DNA of 64,000 nt from an uncultured Eisenbergiella sp. (lineage in GTDB: Bacteria; Bacillota; Clostridia; Lachnospirales; Lachnospiraceae): positions 2,954-66,953 of the forward strand of contig CAUWLJ010000004.1 in the NCBI GenBank assembly GCA_963559585.1. Direction: 5' to 3'. Positions 2,068-12,257 of this stretch are shown piece by piece (position 1 is the stretch's first letter; each line of letters opens with the position of its first letter). The notes under the pieces are model-generated. The model saw only the letters and a program-made list of their open reading frames with translations. It was not told the DNA's origin and ran no database searches. A program made the translations under genes and the position numbers.

Positions 2068-4189
2068 GCTTTCTGCCCTCCTTCTGAAATGTGCTTTTTG
2101 GTGAACTGCCCTTCCTGTTCCCCTTCTTTTTGGAAGCATCCTCTTTCAGATACTCCATTTTTTTCTCATTGTACTCATAAAGCAGCATCAGGGCGTCCAC
2201 ATAATCCTCGCTCCACAGGCCGGACTGCTCTGCAAGCTTCAAAAACCTTTCCCGGTCGAAAAACAGACGGTTCGGCAGTTTTCCCTCTTTTTCCCGTCTA
2301 TCGTTTAAATCCTTTACATTCTGCTTTTCTTCGTCCGTGGAAGGATTCCGGGCTTCTATGATGTCGGCCGCTCTGTCATACCCCACGCTCCTCATACGGA
2401 AAAATGTGGATTTATCCAGCACAAGACGTTTGTATCCACCCCTCCGCAAGTCTTTTCTGTACAGATGGTCGATCAAAACCTCTCTCAGCTCCTTACCCGC
2501 GCCATTTTCATCCCAATTTCCACATTTCTCATATAAATAGTTCTCCGGGCCGCTGAACAGATACTGCTTGACCTCATCTTTCCTGTTGTCTGCCGCTGTC
2601 CCCTCTCCGTAGATTCGGAAACGGACGTCGCTGAAAAGAAGCAGCAACCGCAGATAGCGTTCAAACTGCTGCTTTGTTTCATTCTTTATGCAGATCTTTG
2701 TTACCCCTCCTTCTCTTCTGAACAGCCTCCGGATCAGCATCATGTTCAGGGCCAGCTCCGACTCCCGCACCTCCCGGTCGGCATCTCCCAGATACCGGGG
2801 CAGCAGATGATACAGGATATGGTTCATATACCGTATATCGCTCTTTTCTTTATCATCTCCCCTTTCCTCCGCCGCAATGTCCTCCAGCAGTGTATAGAAG
2901 AAATTCGGCCTTCCCAGCAGTTCGCTGCATCTGCCCTTTCTGCTTCTGATATAATTGAGGAATTTTACATCATTCTTGAAAAATTCCCAGATCAGTTCAT
3001 TCTCCTCTTCCTCTTTAATTGCCGCCTTTTCCCGGCAGCTGCTGCAGCGGCATCCTCTCTTTCCGCAGGCGGCTCCCAATTCCGCCTTTGCCGCCTTCAT
3101 CCGGTCATATTCCACACTCACAAAGGGCAGTCCGCCCACGCAGATCTTCATATCCCCGGCAAATGGCTTCAAAGCCTTCGGAATCGTTTTGGCCTTGGCA
3201 CGCTTTAACTGCTCCTCCACCATTTCCATATAATAGCGGACGGGCTGCCTGTTAAACGTAATATCCACTCCGATGCTGACTCCCAGCTTCAGGCCATTCC
3301 CATCCTTCCTGATCCTGCAGTTCACCTTCTCCATGATCCTGCTGCATACCTGAACGCCGCTGAGCAGATCCTCCACTGCCACGGCAAAGAAAATGTCGTC
3401 CCCCGCAATATAAAAGGGAAACAGCCATCCCTTCTTATTTTCAGGAGCAATCTGCTCCGGGGCAGTCTGCTCCGGGGCACACGCCATCGCCGCCCTGTGC
3501 AGTCCCTCTATGGAGATTTCCTCATTCAAAATCTCACTGATCCTTCTGTATTCTTCATAATCACGGATATTTTGGAATATGGTTCCCATCCCATCCAGAT
3601 CCGCCTTTATCACCGCAATGCGGAAGCGGTTCTTTCTCCCGCCTTCATCGCCTTCCTGCGGCCCCAGTGCATTGATGTCACCGGCAAACTGCGGGAAATC
3701 CCAGTCTTTCTTTTCTCTGCCGGTTTTCTTCACAGGCTGAAAGGAAAACAGCATGTCTCTGTGCCTTTCCAGAATTCTGTTCCAGTTCTCCGTCCGCTTC
3801 AGTTCCTTTTTGGCCTTCTGAATCATATCGATTTTTCTGTCCGATCCTTCGGAGGAAAAATATACCCAGCGGATCAGCTTCTGTCCGTTTGACATCCGAT
3901 AACAGGATTCAAACAGCATGTCAAGCTTACATTCCAGTTCTTTCTTCTGCAGAGCTGAACGAAAAATATAAACGCCGGAGCATTTCAGAAGAATCCCATC
4001 CTCCTCCACGAAAAATGCCTTCTCCACATCCTCAAAAAAATCTTTGGAAATCTGAACGGACGAATCCATAATATCTCTAAGCGTGGCTTCCTCCGTCTGT
4101 TTCTCCTGCACATGGGAATGTATTACCTCCGTCAGAAATGTCTGAATCTTGTCCACGGACAGCGCAACGATCCATTCCGTCATGCTCAT
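2039..4189 (-). CDS. cas10: Cas10 large subunit, no HD domain, AGDD palm motif, C-terminal extension
   Basis: Starts at Palm1-like SVDKIQTFL...TLRDIMDSS; Palm2 IAVIKADLDGMG and FYIAGDDIFF; followed by RAMP genes. Confidence 0.85.
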   Translation of the reverse strand: MSMTEWIVALSVDKIQTFLTEVIHSHVQEKQTEEATLRDIMDSSVQISKDFFEDVEKAFFVEEDGILLKCSGVYIFRSALQKKELECKLDMLFESCYRMSNGQKLIRWVYFSSEGSDRKIDMIQKAKKELKRTENWNRILERHRDMLFSFQPVKKTGREKKDWDFPQFAGDINALGPQEGDEGGRKNRFRIAVIKADLDGMGTIFQNIRDYEEYRRISEILNEEISIEGLHRAAMACAPEQTAPEQIAPENKKGWLFPFYIAGDDIFFAVAVEDLLSGVQVCSRIMEKVNCRIRKDGNGLKLGVSIGVDITFNRQPVRYYMEMVEEQLKRAKAKTIPKALKPFAGDMKICVGGLPFVSVEYDRMKAAKAELGAACGKRGCRCSSCREKAAIKEEEENELIWEFFKNDVKFLNYIRSRKGRCSELLGRPNFFYTLLEDIAAEERGDDKEKSDIRYMNHILYHLLPRYLGDADREVRESELALNMMLIRRLFRREGGVTKICIKNETKQQFERYLRLLLLFSDVRFRIYGEGTAADNRKDEVKQYLFSGPENYLYEKCGNWDENGAGKELREVLIDHLYRKDLRRGGYKRLVLDKSTFFRMRSVGYDRAADIIEARNPSTDEEKQNVKDLNDRREKEGKLPNRLFFDRERFLKLAEQSGLWSEDYVDALMLLYEYNEKKMEYLKEDASKKKGNRKGSSPKSTFQKEGRKHEKRNRNKS

Positions 4190-5178
4190 CCCCCCTTTCC
4201 TTCTTTCTCTTTTTCTTCTTTCTCTTTTTCCTCCTCCTTTTTCGTCTCTTTCCGTCTTCCATTTTGATTGAACATCTCCGCATATGCGATATGCGGAAAC
4301 AGCATGGGATTGTTGATCAGCATGAGAACCTGATTCAACTGAAAATTGAATGTAAGCAGGGAAAGCTCTGATCCGCCCTGTTGCACGATGTAGTCCTCCA
4401 GCTTCCTGGCCTTCACCCCTTGTTTTTCAACAGCCTCTTTCCCACCTTCAGATACCTCTTTCTTTCCATCCTCCTGCTCCGTCTGCTTCAGTTCATCCTT
4501 TGCATGGTTCAGGGAATAGTACCAGTCATATAGATTCTTCCTGGCATTATTCCATGTTATTTTCAGTCTGCCCTCCTTTTTGGCCTCGATCACAATGTCC
4601 AGCTTAGCTATGACTTTGGGGGACGGATTTTTGTCTCCCTCCATGAAGCACAAAAGACACAGCGGACGTGTTGCGCTCTGTGTGTTCACACTTTGCTTCT
4701 CTCCGCACGCGATAAATGCAGCCATTCTCGCATAAGACCGGTTTGAAGTCTGCAAGCTCTGTATACTGTCAATCCATTTTTCAATATCGGAATCTTTGAT
4801 AGAGTGGCTCTTACATTCTATAACCGCTGCTACCGCCTCAATGGGAATGAATTTCATCTTCCCCGCTCTGAAAATATAAGGCGTGTAGGTCTCGTCAAAA
4901 ATCGCCAGATCTACTTCCTTGGAAACCTTTCCATTTGAATCAATAATAAACACCGACTGTTCTATGCAGAACTTGCGCGGCAGCAGATTGGCAAACATTT
5001 CTCTCCATATCTGCTCCCTGTTATGCCCGCTCGTCCCTCCATGGGGAACGGTAAAAGAAAGCTGACTGGTAATCACCCTTTCCATCTGCCTGTAGTTTTC
5101 TTTTATATCCCATATCGCATTTTGATCGTCTGGATTCTGCGAATATTGGATTTCCTTATCCTGTGTATTTTCTCTCAT
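4186..5178 (-). CDS. nucC: NucC-like (DUF6602) cyclic-oligonucleotide-activated PD-(D/E)xK endonuclease
   Basis: HGGTSGHNREQIW...LLPRKF...IIDSNGKVSKEVDLAIFDETYTPYIF...IPIEAVAAVIECKS follows the NucC N-terminal pattern with D-x30-ExK; likely ATG 5178; stop overlaps cas10 ATG (ATGA). Confidence 0.8.
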   Translation of the reverse strand: MRENTQDKEIQYSQNPDDQNAIWDIKENYRQMERVITSQLSFTVPHGGTSGHNREQIWREMFANLLPRKFCIEQSVFIIDSNGKVSKEVDLAIFDETYTPYIFRAGKMKFIPIEAVAAVIECKSHSIKDSDIEKWIDSIQSLQTSNRSYARMAAFIACGEKQSVNTQSATRPLCLLCFMEGDKNPSPKVIAKLDIVIEAKKEGRLKITWNNARKNLYDWYYSLNHAKDELKQTEQEDGKKEVSEGGKEAVEKQGVKARKLEDYIVQQGGSELSLLTFNFQLNQVLMLINNPMLFPHIAYAEMFNQNGRRKETKKEEEKEKEEKEKEGKGG

Positions 5179-5256
5179 TTTTAACTCCCTGCCGGAGCGC
5201 TTTCTGCTCCGGCTGCGGTGAGAAAACACGCATGTGATTTCTCACCTGCGATACTC

Positions 5257-5321
5257 ACAGTTTTGTGACGCTCCGCACAAAACTGTTGATTGGAAATAAG
5301 CCATCAGGCTTATTTTCAATC
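5257..5321. repeat. Two adjacent inverted repeats in the cas6-nucC spacer
   Basis: ACAGTTTTGTG(5257-67)/CACAAAACTGT(5276-86) perfect 11 bp; GATTGGAAATAAGCC(5288-5302)-ATCA-GGCTTATTTTCAATC(5307-21) 15 bp with 1 mismatch. Confidence 0.85.
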
Positions 5322-5402
5322 TCCCTCCATTTTAAACACGCTCTACCCGTCAGTTTCCGGCGCATATGCGTTTCACCGGCTGTAATTTCTTTTTTCAAAA
5401 AT

Positions 5403-6284
5403 TCAAAAAAAGTATACCTGTATCCTTCCCATTCCAAATGTGGTATTCCGCCCCACATGCAAAACCTGGGCGGCATACAGCCAGGGGACAAACGGTGTCA
5501 GATCGCCCTCATACGCCAATTCTCCCAGAAGGCCGCTGAAATCCATTTTTTCACCCAGGCGGTTGGAATACCGCTCCAGCCGTTTCAGGCGCAGCTCCTC
5601 CCTCGTCATTCTGATCTGTTCCGCAAGCCGCTGCAGCCTGGCAGCCTCCTCCTGATCCGTCCAGCCTCCGTAACGCTCCGTCATGGCCGCTGTCCGCGTG
5701 GTAATATTCCTGATCAGCGTGGGAAAGGGAATACTGGTCACCAGCTGTCCCTTACGCCGGATCCTGAGAGGAGTAACCAGTCTCACCACAGCCCCGGCAG
5801 CCTGGGGCAGCCTGCGGCAGGGCAGTTCCACCGGGCGCAGACCTGCCGGATACGCCTGCCCCTCCCGCCAGATCATCCTGCCGTCCTCGCCGTGCGCAAT
5901 CTGAAGCAGACCAAACGGCGCTCTCTGCGCCCCCAGACCGTATTCCCCGATCCGCCCAAAAGCCGTTATCAAAGCCTGCGCATACTGGATTCCTCTGCCA
6001 AAAAGCAGAAAATCAAAGTCCAGAATTTCTCCCTGCTCCACCATGGTTTTTACTCCGCAGGCCCTGGGCGGAACGATCACATAAGGCTTTCCCACATCCT
6101 GCTCCCCACCTCCCTTCTTTCCATTTTCATACAAAAAATGATACGCCTCCCGGTCGATTTCTCTCAGTGCCTGTCCCGTCACGCCCCGCAGAGTGGATCC
6201 CAGATAGGGCGGAAGCTCTGTATATTTCAAAGAAATAAGGGAAACTCTAAGAGGCAGATATACCATATGAAATAACGTCTGCAT
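5403..6284 (-). CDS. cas6: CRISPR pre-crRNA processing endoribonuclease Cas6
   Basis: YLGSTLRGVTG near N-terminus, RRKGQL, C-terminal G-rich loop HVGRNTTFGMGRI. Confidence 0.9.
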   Translation of the reverse strand: MQTLFHMVYLPLRVSLISLKYTELPPYLGSTLRGVTGQALREIDREAYHFLYENGKKGGGEQDVGKPYVIVPPRACGVKTMVEQGEILDFDFLLFGRGIQYAQALITAFGRIGEYGLGAQRAPFGLLQIAHGEDGRMIWREGQAYPAGLRPVELPCRRLPQAAGAVVRLVTPLRIRRKGQLVTSIPFPTLIRNITTRTAAMTERYGGWTDQEEAARLQRLAEQIRMTREELRLKRLERYSNRLGEKMDFSGLLGELAYEGDLTPFVPWLYAAQVLHVGRNTTFGMGRIQVYFF

Positions 6285-6404: not shown

Positions 6405-6433
6405 TTGACGCTCCCGCCCATGTAACATATAAT
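6405..6433 (+). promoter_or_regulatory. SigA-type promoter of pflB
   Basis: TTGACG(6405-10)-17 bp-TATAAT(6428-33); a cre/LacI-like site ATAGAAACGATTCCT follows at 6447-6461 (weak). Confidence 0.8.
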
Positions 6434-6541: not shown

Positions 6542-8593
6542 TTGAGAACAGAATGGAATGGTTTTATCGGCGGTAACTGGGAGAAAGAAGTCGATGTACG
6601 CGACTTTATCCAGAAAAATTACCACCCTTATGACGGGGACGAGGAGTTTCTTGCTCCCCCTACACAGAATACTCTGGCGCTCTGGGATCAGGTTCTGGAG
6701 CTGAGCCGGAAGGAACGGGAGGCGGGCGGCGTGCTGGATATGGATACCAGCGTGATCTCCACCATCACCTCCCATGGCCCCGGTTATCTGGACAAGTCCA
6801 AAGAAACTATCGTGGGCGTGCAGACGGATGCGCCCTTCAAGCGTTCCCTTCAGCCCTACGGAGGAATCCGTATGGCGCAGAAGGCCTGCGCGGACAACGG
6901 ATACACTCTGGATCCCGAGGTGGAGAAGTTTTTTACCACCCACAGAAAAACACACAACGCGGGCGTGTTTGACGCCTACACCCCTGAAATGCGGGCCTGC
7001 CGCAGCGCCCATATCATTACAGGGCTTCCTGACGCCTACGGCCGGGGACGTATCATCGGCGACTACAGAAGGATTGCTCTCTATGGAATCGACCGTCTGA
7101 TCGAGGATAAGGAAGCTCAGAAGGCTTCCACCGGCGGCATCATGACCGATGATGTGATCCGCCTGCGGGAGGAGCTTTCCGAGCAGATCGGCGCGCTGAA
7201 GCAGATGGCGCAGATGGCCGCCTCCTACGGCTGCGATATTTCCAGACCTGCCTCCAATGTGCAGGAAGCCATACAGGCCACCTACTTCGGCTATCTGTCC
7301 GCAGTGAAGGAGCAGAACGGCGCAGCCATGTCCCTGGGCCGCACCTCCACCTTCCTTGACATTTATGCGGAGCGCGACCTGGCGCTGGGTACTTTTACAG
7401 AGGAACAGATCCAGGAATTTGTGGATCATTTTATTATGAAGCTGAGGATCATCAAGTTTGCCCGTACTCCTGAGTACAACGACCTGTTCTCCGGCGATCC
7501 TGTATGGGTAACGGAATCCCTGGCAGGCGTGGGCGTGGACGGACGCCATATGGCAACCAAAATGTCCTTCCGCTATCTGCACACCCTGACCAACCTGGGG
7601 CCTTCCCCGGAGCCCAACCTGACCGTTCTGTGGTCCACCAGGCTTCCTGAGGGCTTTAAGCGTTACTGCGCGAAGATGTCCATTCAGACCTCTTCCATCC
7701 AGTATGAAAACGATGATCTGATGCGTGTCACCCACGGCGACGATTATGGAATTGCCTGCTGTGTATCCTCCATGCGGATCGGCAAGGAAATGCAGTTCTT
7801 CGGCGCACGGGCCAACCTGGCCAAGTGCCTGCTCTACGCCCTGAACGGCGGCGTGGACGAAAAGACGAAGAAGCAGATCGGCCCCAAATACCGGAAGTAT
7901 GAAGGCGACGTGCTGGAATACGACAAGGTGGTGGACGCCTTTGACGATATGATGGAATGGCTGGCGGGCGTATATGTGAACACCCTGAACGTTATCCACT
8001 ATATGCACGACAAATACTGCTATGAAAAGGCGCAGATGGCGCTGCATGACAGAGATGTGCGCCGCTATTTTGCAACGGGAATCGCGGGACTGTCCGTTGT
8101 GGCCGATTCCCTTTCCGCCATCAAATACGCCAAAGTGGAGCCCATCCGGGATGAGGACGGTATTATCGTAGACTTCAAGACCACCGGGGAGTTCCCCAAA
8201 TACGGAAACGATGACGACCGGGTGGACGAAATTGCCAGAGAGCTGGTATCCAAGTTCATGACCATGGTGAGAAGGCATCACACCTACCGTGACAGCTTCC
8301 CCACCACCTCCGTGCTGACGATCACCTCTAACGTGGTGTACGGCAAAGCCACCGGGGCTACGCCGGACGGACGCAAGGCTGGCGTGCCTTTTGCTCCCGG
8401 AGCCAATCCCATGCACGGCAGAGACACCCATGGGGCTGTAGCCTCCTTATCCTCCGTCTCCAAGCTGCCCTTCCGCGACGCCCAGGACGGTATTTCCAAT
8501 ACCTTCACCATCATTCCCGGCGCGCTTGGCAAGGATGACGCTGTGTTTGCAGGAGACATTGAAATCGACCTGGATTTGAATGACGGAGAATAA
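6542..8593 (+). CDS. pflB: Pyruvate formate-lyase large subunit lacking the C-terminal glycyl-radical domain
   Basis: TTG start after AGGAGG; [17 protein letters not shown], catalytic IACCVS Cys pair, [25 protein letters not shown], then a short acidic tail and stop; no RVSGY. Confidence 0.95.
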
Positions 8594-8697
8594 TCGCTAT
8601 ATTCGCCGGCAGGCTTATAAACAGTAACCACGAATCCCTCACAGCAGGCCGGGAGGCCGCGGATCCGCCCCTCCCGCCCGCCTAAAGGAGAACGCCC

Positions 8698-8934
8698 ATG
8701 GAACAGAAGAAAACAAACAGCATGCCGTCTCATGACGGCAGGATAGATGACCTGATCCGTATGCTGGATTCAGGCACGATGCAGGGTGTGGGGCACATCA
8801 ACGTATCCTGCAGCGCCCCAAATGTCTGCGGCAGAGAGGTGCAGACCTTAGGATGCCCCGACTGTTCGGCAGCACCCCTGGCCTGCAGCGTCCCCACCCT
8901 GCATGAGGGACTTGACCGGCCGGAAAATGAATGA
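8698..8934 (+). CDS. 78-aa Cys-rich partial paralog of the PFL glycyl-radical domain N-terminus
   Basis: AAAGGAG RBS; RIDDLIRMLDSGTMQGVGHINV aligns without gaps to [22 protein letters not shown] of the next gene (9 identities in 22); no RVSGY; 5 Cys in tail. Confidence 0.7.
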   Translation: MEQKKTNSMPSHDGRIDDLIRMLDSGTMQGVGHINVSCSAPNVCGREVQTLGCPDCSAAPLACSVPTLHEGLDRPENE

Positions 8935-8940
8935 CACTTC

Positions 8941-8998
8941 ATATCGGTATGCACGGTCAAAAACATGCGGGCATGGTTTTGACCGAACAAACCGATAT
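8941..8998. other. Long imperfect hairpin between the small ORF and the glycyl-radical gene
   Basis: ATATCGGT..CGGTCAAAA..CATGC-GG-GCATG..TTTTGACCG..ACCGATAT nested inverted repeats. Confidence 0.75.
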
Positions 8999-9043
8999 GG
9001 CTGAGCTGTTACAATCAGATTAGACGAAAGGAAGAATAAGACT

Positions 9044-9286
9044 ATGGAAGCAAATAGAGCGCAGATCGACAACCTGGTATCCCTGCTTGACGGCTATGCC
9101 GAAAAGGGCGGCCACCATCTGAATGTGAACGTGCTGAACCGCGACACCCTGCTGGATGCGCAGAAGCACCCGGAGAAATATCCCCAGCTTACCATCCGCG
9201 TATCCGGCTATGCGGTGAATTTTATCAAGCTGACCCCTCAGCAGCAGGCTGACGTGATTTCCCGTACCTTCCACGAAGCTCTGTAA
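9044..9286 (+). CDS. grcA: Stand-alone glycyl-radical domain (GrcA/YfiD-like), equal to the missing C-terminus of PflB
   Basis: [37 protein letters not shown]...[12 protein letters not shown]; AAAGGA RBS. Confidence 0.9.
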
Positions 9287-9290
9287 AAAA

Positions 9291-9370
9291 GTGTGCGTCT
9301 TGACGCACACCCGCGCCGGGCGCGATTGCCGTCAGGCAATATCTGCCTTCCGCGCGAGTGCGCATCCACA
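9291..9370. repeat. 80-bp structured interspersed repeat, copy 1
   Basis: 73/80 identical by hand alignment to 12178-12257; internal hairpins GTGTGCGTC-TT-GACGCACAC and ATTGCC-GTCA-GGCAAT. Confidence 0.9.
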
Positions 9371-9381
9371 GCGGAGCGTCC

Positions 9382-9469
9382 TTTTTTATACAATAGGAAA
9401 GGCACTTTCCTATTGTATAAAAAAAGAACAGCCCCGGCAGGTTTACCCATCCTGCCCGGGGCTGTTCTT
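9382..9469. terminator. Perfect 20-bp inverted repeat with A/T tails plus a second GC-rich hairpin between grcA and pflA
   Basis: TTTTTTATACAATAGGAAAG-GCA-CTTTCCTATTGTATAAAAAA (9382-9424); AAGAACAGCCCCGGCAGG..CCTGCCCGGGGCTGTTCTT (9424-9469). Confidence 0.7.
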
Positions 9470-9570: not shown

Positions 9571-10362
9571 ATGCTGGGAAACATACATTCTATTGAAACC
9601 TTTGGCACCGTGGACGGCCCCGGCGTCAGATTCGTCGTTTTTCTGCAGGGCTGCCCCATGCGCTGCGCCTACTGCCACAATCCGGATACCTGGGAGATAA
9701 ATGCGGGAACGCCCACCGCACCGAAGGAGCTGATGGAGGCCTTCGACCGGAACCGCAGCTTCTACAAGGACGGCGGAATCACCGTGACCGGAGGAGAGCC
9801 CCTGCTTCAGCTCGACTTCCTTCTGGAGTTTTTTACCCTGGCCAAAGCAGAAGGAATCCACACCTGCATTGATTCCTCCGGTATTCCCTTCAACCCATCG
9901 GATAAAGACTGGATGAGGAAGCTCGACCTTCTCCTTTCCATGACAGATCTGGTCATGCTGGACATTAAGCACATCGACCCGAAACGCCACAGGGAACTGA
10001 CCGGATGCCCCAACGACAACATTCTTCTTTTTGCCCACTATCTGGACAGGAAAAAAATTCCCGTGTGGATCCGGCATGTGGTGGTTCCCACTGTCACCGA
10101 TGACGAAGCCTGCCTCTACCGTCTGGGCTGGTTCATCGGCGGACTGAGCAACCTGAAAGCATTGGATATTCTTCCCTACCATACCATGGGAGTCGCCAAA
10201 TACCAAAAGCTGGGGATCCCTTACCGCCTGGAGGGCATTCCCGCCATGGAACGTCCTGCCCTGCTGCTGAAAAAGCAGACCGTATTGAAGGGGATCAGAG
10301 ATCGGAGAAGGGAAAAGGAAGCAGACAGAAGCGGCAAACCCAGGAAACCGGGACGAAGGTAA
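9571..10362 (+). CDS. pflA: Pyruvate formate-lyase activating enzyme (radical SAM)
   Basis: IHSIETFGTVDGPGVRFVVFLQGCPMRCAYCHNPDTW (CxxxCxxC), GGITVTGGEPLLQ. Confidence 0.95.
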   Translation: MLGNIHSIETFGTVDGPGVRFVVFLQGCPMRCAYCHNPDTWEINAGTPTAPKELMEAFDRNRSFYKDGGITVTGGEPLLQLDFLLEFFTLAKAEGIHTCIDSSGIPFNPSDKDWMRKLDLLLSMTDLVMLDIKHIDPKRHRELTGCPNDNILLFAHYLDRKKIPVWIRHVVVPTVTDDEACLYRLGWFIGGLSNLKALDILPYHTMGVAKYQKLGIPYRLEGIPAMERPALLLKKQTVLKGIRDRRREKEADRSGKPRKPGRR

Positions 10363-10403: not shown

Positions 10404-11333
10404 TCACGCCGCCCCGCGCCCCTTCCGGCCGCAGGCCTCGTCAAATTCCCTCAGCCTCCGTTTGGCTTCCTCACTCAGGTTTTTCGGCACATCAATCTGT
10501 ATCGTCACATACTGGTCGCCCCGCTGTGAAGCGTTCTGCATAGATACAACACCCTTGCCCTTCAGGCGGATTCTGGTACCGGACTGTGTGCCGGGGCGTA
10601 TACGGCAGGCTACTCTGCCCGAAAGAGTTTCCACCACCGCCTCCCCTCCCAGAACCGCTGTTGAGAAGGGAATGCGGGCCGTGGTAAAAAGATCCATCCC
10701 CTTTCTCTCAAAACCAGGGCGGGAGCCGACCTGTACCTGAATCAGCAGATCCCCTGGCCGGCCGCCTCCTCTCCCCGGCTGGCCCCTGCCGCGCAGCCGG
10801 ATCGTCTTGCCCGTATCTATCCCTGCCGGAATATGCACCTTCAGAGACTGCCGTTCCCCCCTTTCATCTGTTAGATGGATCAGCTTGTCACAGCCTGATA
10901 TGGCTTCGTCAAAGCCGATCCTGATCTCTGCATGCAGATCAGCCCCCTCACCCTGAGGCATATCCCACCCGAATCCTCCTCCGGATCCGCCAAAGCCAAA
11001 GCTTCCTCCGAAAATATCCCTCAGAATATCATCCATGTCCGATTCTGTAAAATGATATTCCCTTCTTTCTGTGCCAGAGCCTGCAGAGCCCTGCCCGCCG
11101 GTATCGTCAAAGGCGGAAAATCCATACCGGTCATAGAGCTTTCTCTTCTCAGGATCACTGAGAATGGCATATGCCTCTGTAGCCTCCTTAAAACGCTCCT
11201 CCGCCTGCGCATTTCCCGCATTGCTGTCCGGGTGGTACTGTTTCGCCAGCCTCCGGTATGCCTTCTTTATCATACCGATGTCAGCGGTGCGCGGGACTCC
11301 AAGGACTTCGTAGCAGTCTCTCTTTGCGTCCAT
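10404..11333 (-). CDS. Class B J-domain protein (CbpA/DnaJ-like, no zinc finger)
   Basis: YEVLGV...[12 protein letters not shown]-domain; C-terminal DnaJ substrate-binding repeats; no CxxCxGxG; start 11333 chosen from GGAGG spacing. Confidence 0.9.
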
Positions 11334-11517
11334 ACCCATACCTCCACAAAATATATTGATAATAATTGACCCCGCAGGCAAGGCCTGCAGGGTCTTATTT
11401 CAGATGACGGAGTTTCTTTTAAAGCCCTCGCCCGCCATTCCATTTGCAGCTGTTCAGCGGCGCTGGCCGTCCAAAGCCTTGTCAGGGCTTCCGATGCGGC
11501 ACAGTGCCTTCCGCTTA

Positions 11518-11976
11518 TCACTCAATGGGGATAAAGCGGTTGTTTTCCTCCACTGCCTTCTTTTCTTCCTTAGGAAGGGAGAATTTCAGGATCCCGCTTT
11601 CATATCTGGGATGAATGTCCTGCTCCGTCACATGCTCTCCTACATAGAAGCTGCGGCTCATGCTGCCGGCGTACCGCTCCTGTCTCACGTATCTGCCCTT
11701 CTTGTTTTCCGTGTCCTTGTCCAGTCCCTTTGAGGCTGTGATCGTCAGATAGCCGTCGTGCAGCTGAAGCTGGATCTCGTCCTTGCTGAAGCCGGGCAGA
11801 TCCATGTCGACCTCATAGCCGTTTTCCGTCTCACGCACATCGGTCTTCATCATATTCTTCGCATGCTTTCCGTACAGCACTCTGTCCACATCCGGAAAAT
11901 CCTCAAAGGCTGGAAATGCAAATCCATTCATAAAATCATCAAACAGGTTTTCTCCAAAAATACTGGGTCTTAACAT
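11518..11976 (-). CDS. Hsp20/alpha-crystallin small heat-shock protein
   Basis: MKTDVRE...DLPGFSKDEI...RQERYAGSMSRSF...YESGILKFSLPK. Confidence 0.95.
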   Translation of the reverse strand: MLRPSIFGENLFDDFMNGFAFPAFEDFPDVDRVLYGKHAKNMMKTDVRETENGYEVDMDLPGFSKDEIQLQLHDGYLTITASKGLDKDTENKKGRYVRQERYAGSMSRSFYVGEHVTEQDIHPRYESGILKFSLPKEEKKAVEENNRFIPIE

Positions 11977-12177: not shown

Positions 12178-12257
12178 GTGTGCGTCTTGAGACTCACCCG
12201 CGCCGAGCGCGATTGCCGTCAGGCAATATCTGCCTCTCGCGCGAATGCGCATCCACA
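12178..12257. repeat. 80-bp structured interspersed repeat, copy 2
   Basis: Same orientation as 9291-9370, 7 differences. Confidence 0.9.

Follow-up and report, generated by a model that had tools for sequence, protein, structure and literature searches.

A probable two-chain pyruvate formate-lyase with a separately encoded radical domain in an uncultured Eisenbergiella species

The pflB locus in a 64,000-nucleotide window from an uncultured gut Eisenbergiella species probably encodes a real, obligately heteromeric pyruvate formate-lyase (PFL) with the radical domain on a separate chain, a reading to which we give a probability of about 0.82. PFL, the founding member of the glycyl radical enzymes (GREs), is a main pyruvate route in gut anaerobes. 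In the proposed mechanism, the 683-residue chain would provide the catalytic barrel, including Cys406/Cys407 and the arginines that bind pyruvate, but neither its last strand nor the radical loop, and the 80-residue chain would dock non-covalently at the place of Escherichia coli PflB residues 682-759. PflA, which is encoded next door, would make the radical on Gly55, from where it would pass over Cys407 and Cys406 to pyruvate, as in the single-chain enzyme. Assembly, activation and activity of the split enzyme, as well as any gain, for instance a cheap exchange of the small chain once oxygen has cut it, are predicted here from the sequence.

The gene for the large, catalytic subunit (6542..8593, forward strand) starts with a TTG codon preceded by AGGAGG. 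The encoded chain matches the Pfam PFL-like domain over positions 4-647 of 647 and the Gly_radical domain over positions 1-50 of 106, and it scores 1097.6 bits against TIGR01255 (cut-off 994.2), covering profile positions 2-665 of 744. In the alignment with E. coli PflB, the chain spans residues 7-680, with C406 and C407 corresponding to the E. coli Cys418/419 pair and R170 and R423 to the pyruvate-binding Arg176 and Arg435, and with Phe327, Trp333, and Phe432 conserved. The large chain has no strand beta10, no Gly loop, and no C-terminal helix. The original prediction had described a PflB that keeps its Cys-Cys site and stops after PGALGKDD plus an acidic tail, which the ORF and the alignment show to be correct to the base.

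As had also been predicted, the missing segment is found on a separate gene (9044..9286, forward strand), which begins exactly 450 nt downstream of the large ORF (8594-9043) and has its own ATG, with GAAAGGAAG upstream as the Shine-Dalgarno site. The small ORF matches Gly_radical positions 50-106 of 106, and because both ORFs meet at position 50 of this profile, nothing is lost or duplicated between them. The alignment places the 80-residue chain at E. coli PflB residues 684-759, and phmmer places it at 682-758. Its sequence makes up the segment that the large chain lacks, with a helix, strand beta10 (HHLNVNV), the RVSGY loop with the radical glycine at G55, and the C-terminal helix, and ends in RTFHEAL. 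The RVSGY motif expected of a TIGR01255 protein is therefore on this 80-residue ORF, another polypeptide than the one with the active-site cysteines. NF038360 (GrcA3) recognises the small protein over positions 2-78 of its 78, with 163.8 bits where 158 is the cut-off, and NCBI gives the names GrcA or GrcA3 to the cluster mates of this protein.

We looked for a full-length pflB elsewhere, as the original prediction had proposed, and found none in the 99%-complete genome; the split pair is its sole true PFL. The other PFL-like matches are only HypD and a PFL2-type enzyme, both with intact radical domains. The small chain thus appears to be the regular radical subunit and no spare, being the sole source of a PFL radical glycine in this genome. 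The activating enzyme PflA, a radical-SAM protein with the cluster motif CPMRCAYC, is encoded at 9571..10362 on the forward strand (TIGR02493, 289.5 bits with a cut-off of 231.75).

The split is conserved well beyond this genome. It is present in 14 of 16 other Eisenbergiella genomes, none of which has a fused PFL, and the 301 Lachnospiraceae genera sampled include at least 119 with it (about 40% or more), so that the conservation across the family which the original prediction had put up for checking is borne out. Its guess of the Lachnospiraceae was also right, the genus being Eisenbergiella. Outside the Lachnospiraceae, split PFLs were found in a few genomes of the same phylum. In the tree, all split forms fall into one clade with fused forms nested within it, so that split and fused PFLs interconvert, and this speaks for their functional equivalence. 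AU tests of groups named after the tree was seen reject a monophyly of the split forms only (p = 3e-5 and 0.002).

Some observations go beyond the original prediction, namely that the acidic tail is conserved, that the 450-nt spacer holds a conserved gene, and that the small protein is already known as GrcA3. The acidic tail comprises the 17 residues at the C-terminal end of the large chain (codons 8540..8590, forward strand), the motif being hydrophobic-hydrophobic-x-G-D-hydrophobic-acidic-hydrophobic-acidic-L. It is present in all split forms examined and absent from plain fused PFLs, and is a conserved signature of the split forms; two fused PFL forms retain tail-like linkers. Two longer homologues of the large chain (805 and 821 residues) were considered as natural fusions and turned out to be internal-duplication artefacts; apart from these two, the matches of the large-chain homologue search are all at least 84% identical.

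The gene in the spacer (8698..8934, forward strand) is unnamed, has the ribosome binding site AAGGAG, and lies in a different frame from the large and small ORFs in the window. The N-terminal part of its 78-residue product (IDDLIRMLDSG..GVGHINV) is a paralog of the first helix and beta10 of the small subunit, with hhalign giving a probability of 93.9% and an E-value of 1.6e-7 for the two proteins. Towards the C-terminus comes the motif C..ACSVPTLHEGLD and then an acidic end; two Cys (C56 and C63) are invariant among 14 sequences, and this Cys motif is found in at least 578 species genomes. The middle ORF has a dN/dS of 0.06-0.46 overall, with 0.08-0.11 in the comparison that covered all three ORFs, and evolves under purifying selection across genera. 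No Pfam or NCBIfam family matched the middle protein, and its profile gave no meaningful match in the PDB. In some species, the Cys tail is fused to the large chain, and both the middle ORF and the Cys tail are absent from one lineage (L031). Read-through from the large into the middle ORF was considered and rejected, the two sharing a frame in 25 of 80 loci, which is the chance level. The middle protein, or its fused Cys tail, is probably a clade-specific accessory.

The AlphaFold2 structure for a read-through construct of the E. tayi large, middle, and small proteins takes the E. coli PFL fold in its large and small parts, with a TM-score of 0.94-0.95 and an rmsd of about 2 Å to 2PFL and a pLDDT of 74-87 for the small part, although the presence of fused PFLs in the alignment makes this in effect a homology model. 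The acidic tail and the middle protein have a pLDDT of 24-45 in the same model, too low for their placement to be interpreted, so that it speaks neither for nor against a plug or another docking site. An earlier AlphaFold2 model of the E. tayi large and middle proteins, with stops written as Gly and 74 close homologues in the alignment, has a mean pLDDT of 46.7 and is left out of account.

E. coli GrcA/YfiD (compared through PDB IDs 1H16/2PFL and 6OWR) and phage T4 Y06I are likewise free-standing proteins with an RVSGY loop, beta10, and a C-terminal helix. Once PflA has activated it, GrcA/YfiD can provide a PFL body with the glycyl radical in trans, and it acts on cleaved PflB as a replaceable radical part (PMC13450708, PMC8683613). 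The small chain resembles it at the sequence level, matching 6OWR residues 68-127 with an E-value of 1.6e-25, along with PflB residues 682-758. The parallel to YfiD/GrcA drawn in the original prediction holds to this extent, and an engineered E. coli pair of tPFL(1-695) and truncYfiD(61-127) is catalytically competent, with wild-type-level activity once activated (PMC8683613). It breaks down in that the small protein stays below the TIGR04365 (GrcA/YfiD) cut-off, with 98.3 bits against 170 and a match to positions 66-126 only, and in that E. coli has a full-length PflB and employs GrcA only after damage, whereas this Eisenbergiella has no full-length PFL. The 80-residue chain also lacks the disordered N-terminus of ~60 residues found in GrcA and, unlike GrcA, is operon-linked to its body, which carries the acidic tail and is joined by a third gene. 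NF038360 is an annotation model only, and the name GrcA3 implies a spare part, while NCBI labels the partner gene plainly as "formate C-acetyltransferase".

The engineered pair has the same two-piece architecture, with the cut about 15 residues further downstream than in Eisenbergiella, whereas the natural pair has evolved together. Because the engineered pair binds weakly and activates poorly (PMC8683613), efficient assembly of the natural one would have to rest on clade-specific features, with the acidic tail and the middle protein as candidates. In cleaved E. coli PFL, residues 696-733 are a recognition element (PMC8683613), and the middle protein, which duplicates the helix and strand that span roughly E. 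coli residues 683 to 707, may resemble this element.

Two PDB entries, both titled "Formate acetyltransferase", match the large chain with about 1110-1118 bits, above E. coli PflB (992 bits). The chain of 38la has 687 residues, is aligned from residue 25, and ends in ...SLGKED, and that of 38lb has 739 residues, is aligned from residue 22, and runs on with ...ALGKSGNVMFGECD and 44 further residues. Neither was matched by the small-subunit query, so both chains are without the radical segment, and no small chain was found in the two entries. The 38lb tail has a looser version of the acidic-tail motif (GNVMFGECD) and no match to the Cys motif of the middle protein. Both entries are missing from our fold library, which ends at 2026-04-08.

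Benzylsuccinate synthase (BSS) alpha-beta-gamma and 4-hydroxyphenylacetate decarboxylase (HPAD) likewise combine a large GRE chain with small Cys-containing accessory chains. In these enzymes, the large chain keeps the radical glycine and the accessory chains bind [4Fe-4S] clusters, whereas in Eisenbergiella the radical glycine is on the small chain. The four-cysteine cluster motif of the Fe-S small subunits of GREs (BSS beta/gamma, HPAD gamma) is not found in the middle ORF, which has two invariant Cys. A search for papers on a natural split PFL, GrcA3, 38la/38lb, or GrcA in Lachnospiraceae, with subscription journals mostly outside its reach, returned none that is relevant; the split layout is thus without a paper found by us, and the small protein already has its name GrcA3 from NCBI.

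It is possible, and we hold it tentatively, that the split is kept by selection, with oxygen cleavage destroying only the 80-residue chain, which would be swapped for a fresh one while the large chain is reused. This cheap-oxygen-repair rationale, already offered in the original prediction, is plausible, with circumstantial support from the extra small-subunit genes. A second copy is present in 26 of the 119 split genomes, and all 10 checked, plus the one in L024, are unlinked to pflB and pflA. The neighbours of lone small genes are rubrerythrin together with a Fur-family regulator and Hsp20, or rubrerythrin alone, and a Crp/Fnr-type regulator lies directly upstream in 3 of 11 cases. Viral contigs in IMG/VR (70-330 kb) also carry lone GrcA3-type genes of 77-80 residues without a PFL body. 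E. coli GrcA works in this manner on cleaved PflB (PMC13450708, PMC8683613). However, the genome studied here has a single small-subunit gene, which shares its transcription unit with the large gene and has no obvious promoter of its own, and the genes have been re-fused in several lineages.

Somewhat unlikely in our view, a near-neutral split would mean that a stop and a restart are tolerated because the radical domain is in any case a module that docks by itself, and that lineages drift between the two states without a specific benefit. At least 4 changes of state are found on the 44-taxon tree, and the fused forms nest within the split clade. Several such interchanges are compatible also with near-neutral drift, which would further agree with the highly variable spacer between the large and small ORFs (21-982 nt across split loci) and with L031, where both the middle ORF and the Cys tail are missing. 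Drift does not readily explain why every split form examined has the acidic tail motif, why purifying selection acts on the middle gene in different genera, why the split is retained in at least 119 genera, or why extra unlinked and phage-borne small genes exist.

A more elaborate reading of the two-chain enzyme, which we consider speculative and rather unlikely, is that a large part of the Lachnospiraceae has PFL as a machine with three components. In it, the 80-residue chain would be a consumable radical cartridge, with stress-linked extra copies in some genomes and phage copies, and the 78-residue paralog or fused Cys tail would serve as a socket plug or recognition element. By mimicking the stump of oxygen-cleaved PflB (696-733), it would control the loading or activation of the cartridge.

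It is highly improbable that the truncated PflB is a relic without activity or serves another purpose, and that the small ORF is a GrcA-type spare for another glycyl radical enzyme. The genome does have two other GREs, HypD and the PFL2-type enzyme, and NCBI uses the name "autonomous glycyl radical cofactor", but both GREs have radical domains of their own, and the small chain shares 66% identity with the PFL C-terminus, compared with 45-48% for the C-termini of these two. Moreover, every catalytic residue is retained in the large chain, which has a dN/dS of 0.03-0.06 against its genus relatives, and the small chain has a dN/dS of 0.013-0.016. The gene order large-small-pflA is conserved as well.

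Even less probable is a single joined polypeptide made by means of an intron, intein, ribosomal bypassing, or stop-codon read-through. The large and small ORFs do share a frame in the window (9044 - 6542 = 2502), but several stops lie between them, and across 108 split loci the frame offsets of the small ORF (40/33/35) are random. All 108 small ORFs have their own ATG and an SD-like site. Spacers of 21-36 nt are too short for an intron, the Rfam search (E <= 10) yielded only hairpin-type chance matches and no intron or ribozyme, and the spacer in the window encodes a selected protein in another frame. An assembly error or recent pseudogene, for which the unusual layout alone would speak, is practically negligible, since the same layout recurs in hundreds of independently assembled genomes, complete ones among them, the exact small and middle proteins of the window are found on 8 and 11 independently assembled contigs (NCBI, Logan, and ENA), and all three ORFs are under strong purifying selection.

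If at least 40% of Lachnospiraceae genera build PFL from separate chains, the textbook single-chain picture fails for one of the most abundant families of the human gut. A natural, co-evolved pair of body and cartridge would be a clean system for questions left by the E. coli PflB/GrcA work, such as the way in which the radical domain moves out of the barrel and back in, whether the substrate of PflA is the free domain or the docked one, and what recognises a vacant socket, and also whether the spare-part logic can be engineered into other oxygen-sensitive GREs. The case furthermore points to an annotation problem: the label of the body is that of any ordinary PFL, the cartridge is called a "spare", and no name has been given to the third gene.

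A promoter-like site, TTGACG-17-TATAAT, lies upstream of the operon (6405..6433, forward strand) and is a consensus match only, with 11 of 12 positions. Downstream of the small gene, an inverted repeat with a perfect 23-nt stem, flanked by T and A runs (9379..9427, no strand assigned), likely ends the three-gene unit as a bidirectional intrinsic terminator. The same hairpin also gave spurious miRNA-like matches in the Rfam search.

The large chain of the pyruvate formate-lyase (PFL) is encoded at positions 6542-8593 on the plus strand (683 aa), with a TTG start 8 bases after AGGAGG, a TAA stop, and a promoter-like site, TTGACG-17-TATAAT, at 6405-6433. It passes the NCBIfam model TIGR01255 (formate C-acetyltransferase) with 1097.6 bits (cut-off, 994.2), covering only profile positions 2-665 of 744. 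Pfam assigns it to PFL-like (4-647 of 647) and to Gly_radical, of which it matches the first half (1-50 of 106); the C-terminus reads ...PGALGKDD, followed by 17 residues and the stop. The small ORF (9044-9286, plus strand, 80 aa), preceded by GAAAGGAAG, starts exactly 450 nt after the large ORF and matches the rest of Gly_radical (50-106 of 106); the profile position at which the large ORF stops matching is thus the one at which the small ORF begins. In an alignment with E. coli PflB, residues 7-680 correspond to the large chain (64% identity) and residues 684-759 to the small chain (66% identity). Cys418/Cys419 of E. coli correspond to C406/C407 of the large chain, Arg176 and Arg435 to R170 and R423, and Phe327, Trp333, and Phe432 are kept; the small chain keeps R-V-S-G734-Y, with the radical glycine at G55. 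ORF ends, domain matches, and alignment thus bear out in every detail the original prediction of a PflB that keeps its Cys-Cys active site and ends after PGALGKDD plus an acidic tail, with the radical segment as a separate gene with its own RBS 450 bp downstream. A further ORF of 78 aa with the RBS AAGGAG (8698-8934) lies between the two, and downstream of the small ORF come a perfect 23-nt hairpin flanked by runs of T and A (9379-9427) and pflA (9571-10362; TIGR02493, 289.5 bits).

No full-length pflB is found elsewhere in the 99% complete genome, where only four PFL-like matches occur. One is the window locus itself and another is HypD (NF043068, 1312 bits), adjoining proC. The remaining two are halves of one PFL2-type enzyme, with the N-terminal 150 aa at G000:C6:67789-68235 and the rest on G000:C176; a second split gene can be rejected here, the break being an assembly gap at two contig ends. 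Since HypD and the PFL2-type enzyme each have a single Cys and carry a radical domain of their own, the window locus is the only true PFL.

Among 60 relatives, the stand-alone small ORF occurs in 14 of the 16 further genomes from the genus, in nine other genera of the family, and in two other families, with open frames of 80-110 aa that are 76-98% identical; more distant genomes encode fused PFLs of 741-780 aa. The split is likewise conserved across the Lachnospiraceae, with the stand-alone ORF in at least 119 of 301 genomes (roughly one per genus), a lower bound because the count rests on the best 150 matches, 5 of them fused. Only three more split cases came from 400 genomes sampled evenly across the phylum. 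Across 108 split loci, spacers of 21-982 nt (median, 302) separate the two ORFs, whose frame offset is random (40/33/35), and every small ORF has an ATG and a preceding SD-like purine run; in view of this and of an Rfam search that found no intron or ribozyme, splicing or recoding can be ruled out as the general explanation. Measured against three Eisenbergiella species, dN/dS is lower for the small chain (0.013-0.016) than for the large chain (0.03-0.06), and the exact small and middle proteins of the window are found on 8 and 11 other contigs, respectively (NCBI, Logan, and ENA). The split PFL with a third conserved gene is confirmed as genuine and widespread, and the sequence comparisons give good support to a radical domain supplied in trans. 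Two metagenome "PFL" gene calls of 805 and 821 aa (P0036 and P0039) are rejected as natural fusions, as stretches of about 100-140 residues are repeated exactly within them, and they are probably assembly artefacts.

The middle ORF is kept in most split loci with 30-75% identity. For this ORF, the least-diverged pairs whose dS is not saturated give a dN/dS of 0.06-0.08, comparisons with the window 0.08-0.11, and all pairs with defined dS 0.06-0.46. The protein has no match in Pfam, NCBIfam, or PDB sequences and carries no database name. Its N-terminal part (IDDLIRMLDSG..GVGHINV) is homologous to a 20-residue stretch of the small subunit (hhalign probability 93.9%, E value 1.6e-7, 27 columns), and its C-terminal part contains the motif C-x6-A-C-x-V-P-T-L-(H/M)-x-G-(L/I/M)-D, after which come acidic residues; the invariant positions include C56, A62, C63, P66, T67, L68, G71, and D73. 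At least 578 species-representative genomes contain the Cys motif; of the 80 motif loci listed, nearly all are labelled Lachnospiraceae or its genera (Eisenbergiella, Acetatifactor, and others). Some species lack the N-terminal part and have the Cys motif as an in-frame extension of the large-chain tail, as in ...DLSGLPSCCAPTLHEGLDREE and ...ESGCDCGPDMSCGIPNLMEGIDDNEAGN, and one lineage (L031) has neither a separate middle ORF nor a fused motif. The tail itself carries the motif hydrophobic-hydrophobic-x-G-D-hydrophobic-acidic-hydrophobic-acidic-L, which every split form examined has and plain fused PFLs lack.

The middle protein duplicates a helix and a strand that in the E. coli enzyme lie at about residues 683-707. 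As it ends shortly after a conserved Gly, it resembles the stump of an oxygen-cleaved PFL, of which residues 696-733 are the recognition element for YfiD in E. coli (PMC8683613); we regard this sequence likeness as a lead rather than a result.

For structure prediction, the E. tayi large, middle, and small proteins, whose ORFs all lie in one frame, were joined as one chain with the stops read as Gly. AlphaFold2 with an alignment of 69 rows that included fused PFLs, and hence close to homology modelling, gave a mean pLDDT of 80.8 and a pTM of 0.83. The large part is mostly above 85, the small part at 74-87, and the tail and middle protein at 24-45. Foldseek superposes the model on the whole of the E. 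coli PFL structures 2PFL, 1CM5, and 1MZO (TM score 0.94-0.95, rmsd about 2 A). The model agrees with a canonical docking of the small chain and is silent on the third protein.

Judged by homology and published E. coli work, the large chain would most likely form the ten-stranded barrel minus strand beta10, with beta10, the Gly55 loop, and the last helix contributed by the small chain. PflA would generate the radical on Gly55, from where it would move via Cys407 and Cys406 to pyruvate, making the small chain the regular radical subunit. In E. coli, a truncated PFL (tPFL, residues 1-695) with truncYfiD (61-127) is fully active once activated, but binding and activation are poor (PMC8683613). The natural pair presumably offsets this through co-evolved features, with the conserved tail and the third protein as the obvious candidates.

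A maximum-likelihood tree built from 44 large-chain regions groups all split forms in one clade (SH-aLRT 98%), sister to a fused clade. Nested within the split clade are a four-member fused clade and two fused proteins with tail-like in-frame linkers (...KDDVLFTEDLNTEHID... and ...MLFVNDTPDVTCGCEEVTCAVD...). Trees uniting the split rows without these nested forms are rejected by AU tests (p = 3e-5 and 0.002), with groups named after the tree was seen, indicating at least four state changes. The fused 765-766-aa PFLs at loci L141 (genome G226) and L144 (G155), whose in-frame linkers resemble the split-form tail, in L144 with an additional Cys-rich remnant TCGCEEVTCAVD, look like secondary re-fusions of the split enzyme. 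Such repeated changes show that, over evolutionary time, either form of the enzyme can functionally take the place of the other; they do not tell which state is favoured, or why.

One reading is that the split makes damage to the radical domain cheap, as oxygen would cost only an exchangeable 80-aa subunit. The case for it is circumstantial. A second small-subunit gene occurs in 26 of 119 split genomes, and the extra copy is unlinked to pflB and pflA in 10 of 10 checked and in L024. Among the 11 lone copies examined (L121, L122, L125, L126, L129, L131, L133, L135, L137, L139, and L024), a Crp/Fnr-type regulator lies immediately upstream of three (L121, L126, and L129) and rubrerythrin adjoins two, L139 and L137, the latter also next to a Fur-family regulator and Hsp20. 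Lone 77-80-aa GrcA3-type genes are also found on at least eight IMG/VR contigs of 70-330 kb that lack the PFL Cys-Cys motif. Against it stand the re-fusions and the window's own genome, where the only small gene is apparently transcribed together with the large one.

The viral loci listed (L159, L170, L187, L193, L198, L206, L218, and L225, on viral contigs of 73-333 kb, all eight without the Cys-Cys motif) show the pattern MSQRVDNLVQMLDTYV.DGG.HLNVNV. The 127-aa GrcA homologues of T4/T5-type phages are abundant in the same IMG/VR scan, and the shorter genes look like their Firmicutes-phage counterparts.

The small protein passes NCBIfam NF038360 (GrcA3) with 163.8 bits (cut-off, 158), and NCBI names its cluster mates GrcA or GrcA3 and the large chains plain "formate C-acetyltransferase". 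Two recent PDB entries, 38la and 38lb, contain "Formate acetyltransferase" chains, neither with the radical segment: the 38la chain ends in ...GKED, and 38lb has a tail of about 50 residues starting ...GKSGNVMFGECD. Neither is in the fold library ending 2026-04-08, and no paper on them was found. As a spare part, a review of glycyl radical enzymes from June 2026 discusses only YfiD/GrcA; it makes no mention of a natural split and does not contain the word "truncated" (PMC13450708). The literature searched did not yield the term "GrcA3" or anything relevant on a natural split PFL, and the split form is apparently unpublished.

Genes for Cas6 (PF10040) and for a DUF6602 protein, both on the minus strand (4186-6284), lie immediately upstream of the PFL operon. 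An intergenic element of about 80 nt occurs twice in the window, with an identical 27-nt core, CGCGATTGCCGTCAGGCAATATCTGCC, at 9321-9347 and 12208-12234 on the same strand; none would be expected by chance. ORF translation alone indicates a DnaJ-like gene just downstream of pflA (10404-11381, minus strand) and an Hsp20-like gene farther on (11518-11976, minus strand), and a Pfam-confirmed Hsp20 also adjoins the lone small-subunit gene L137.
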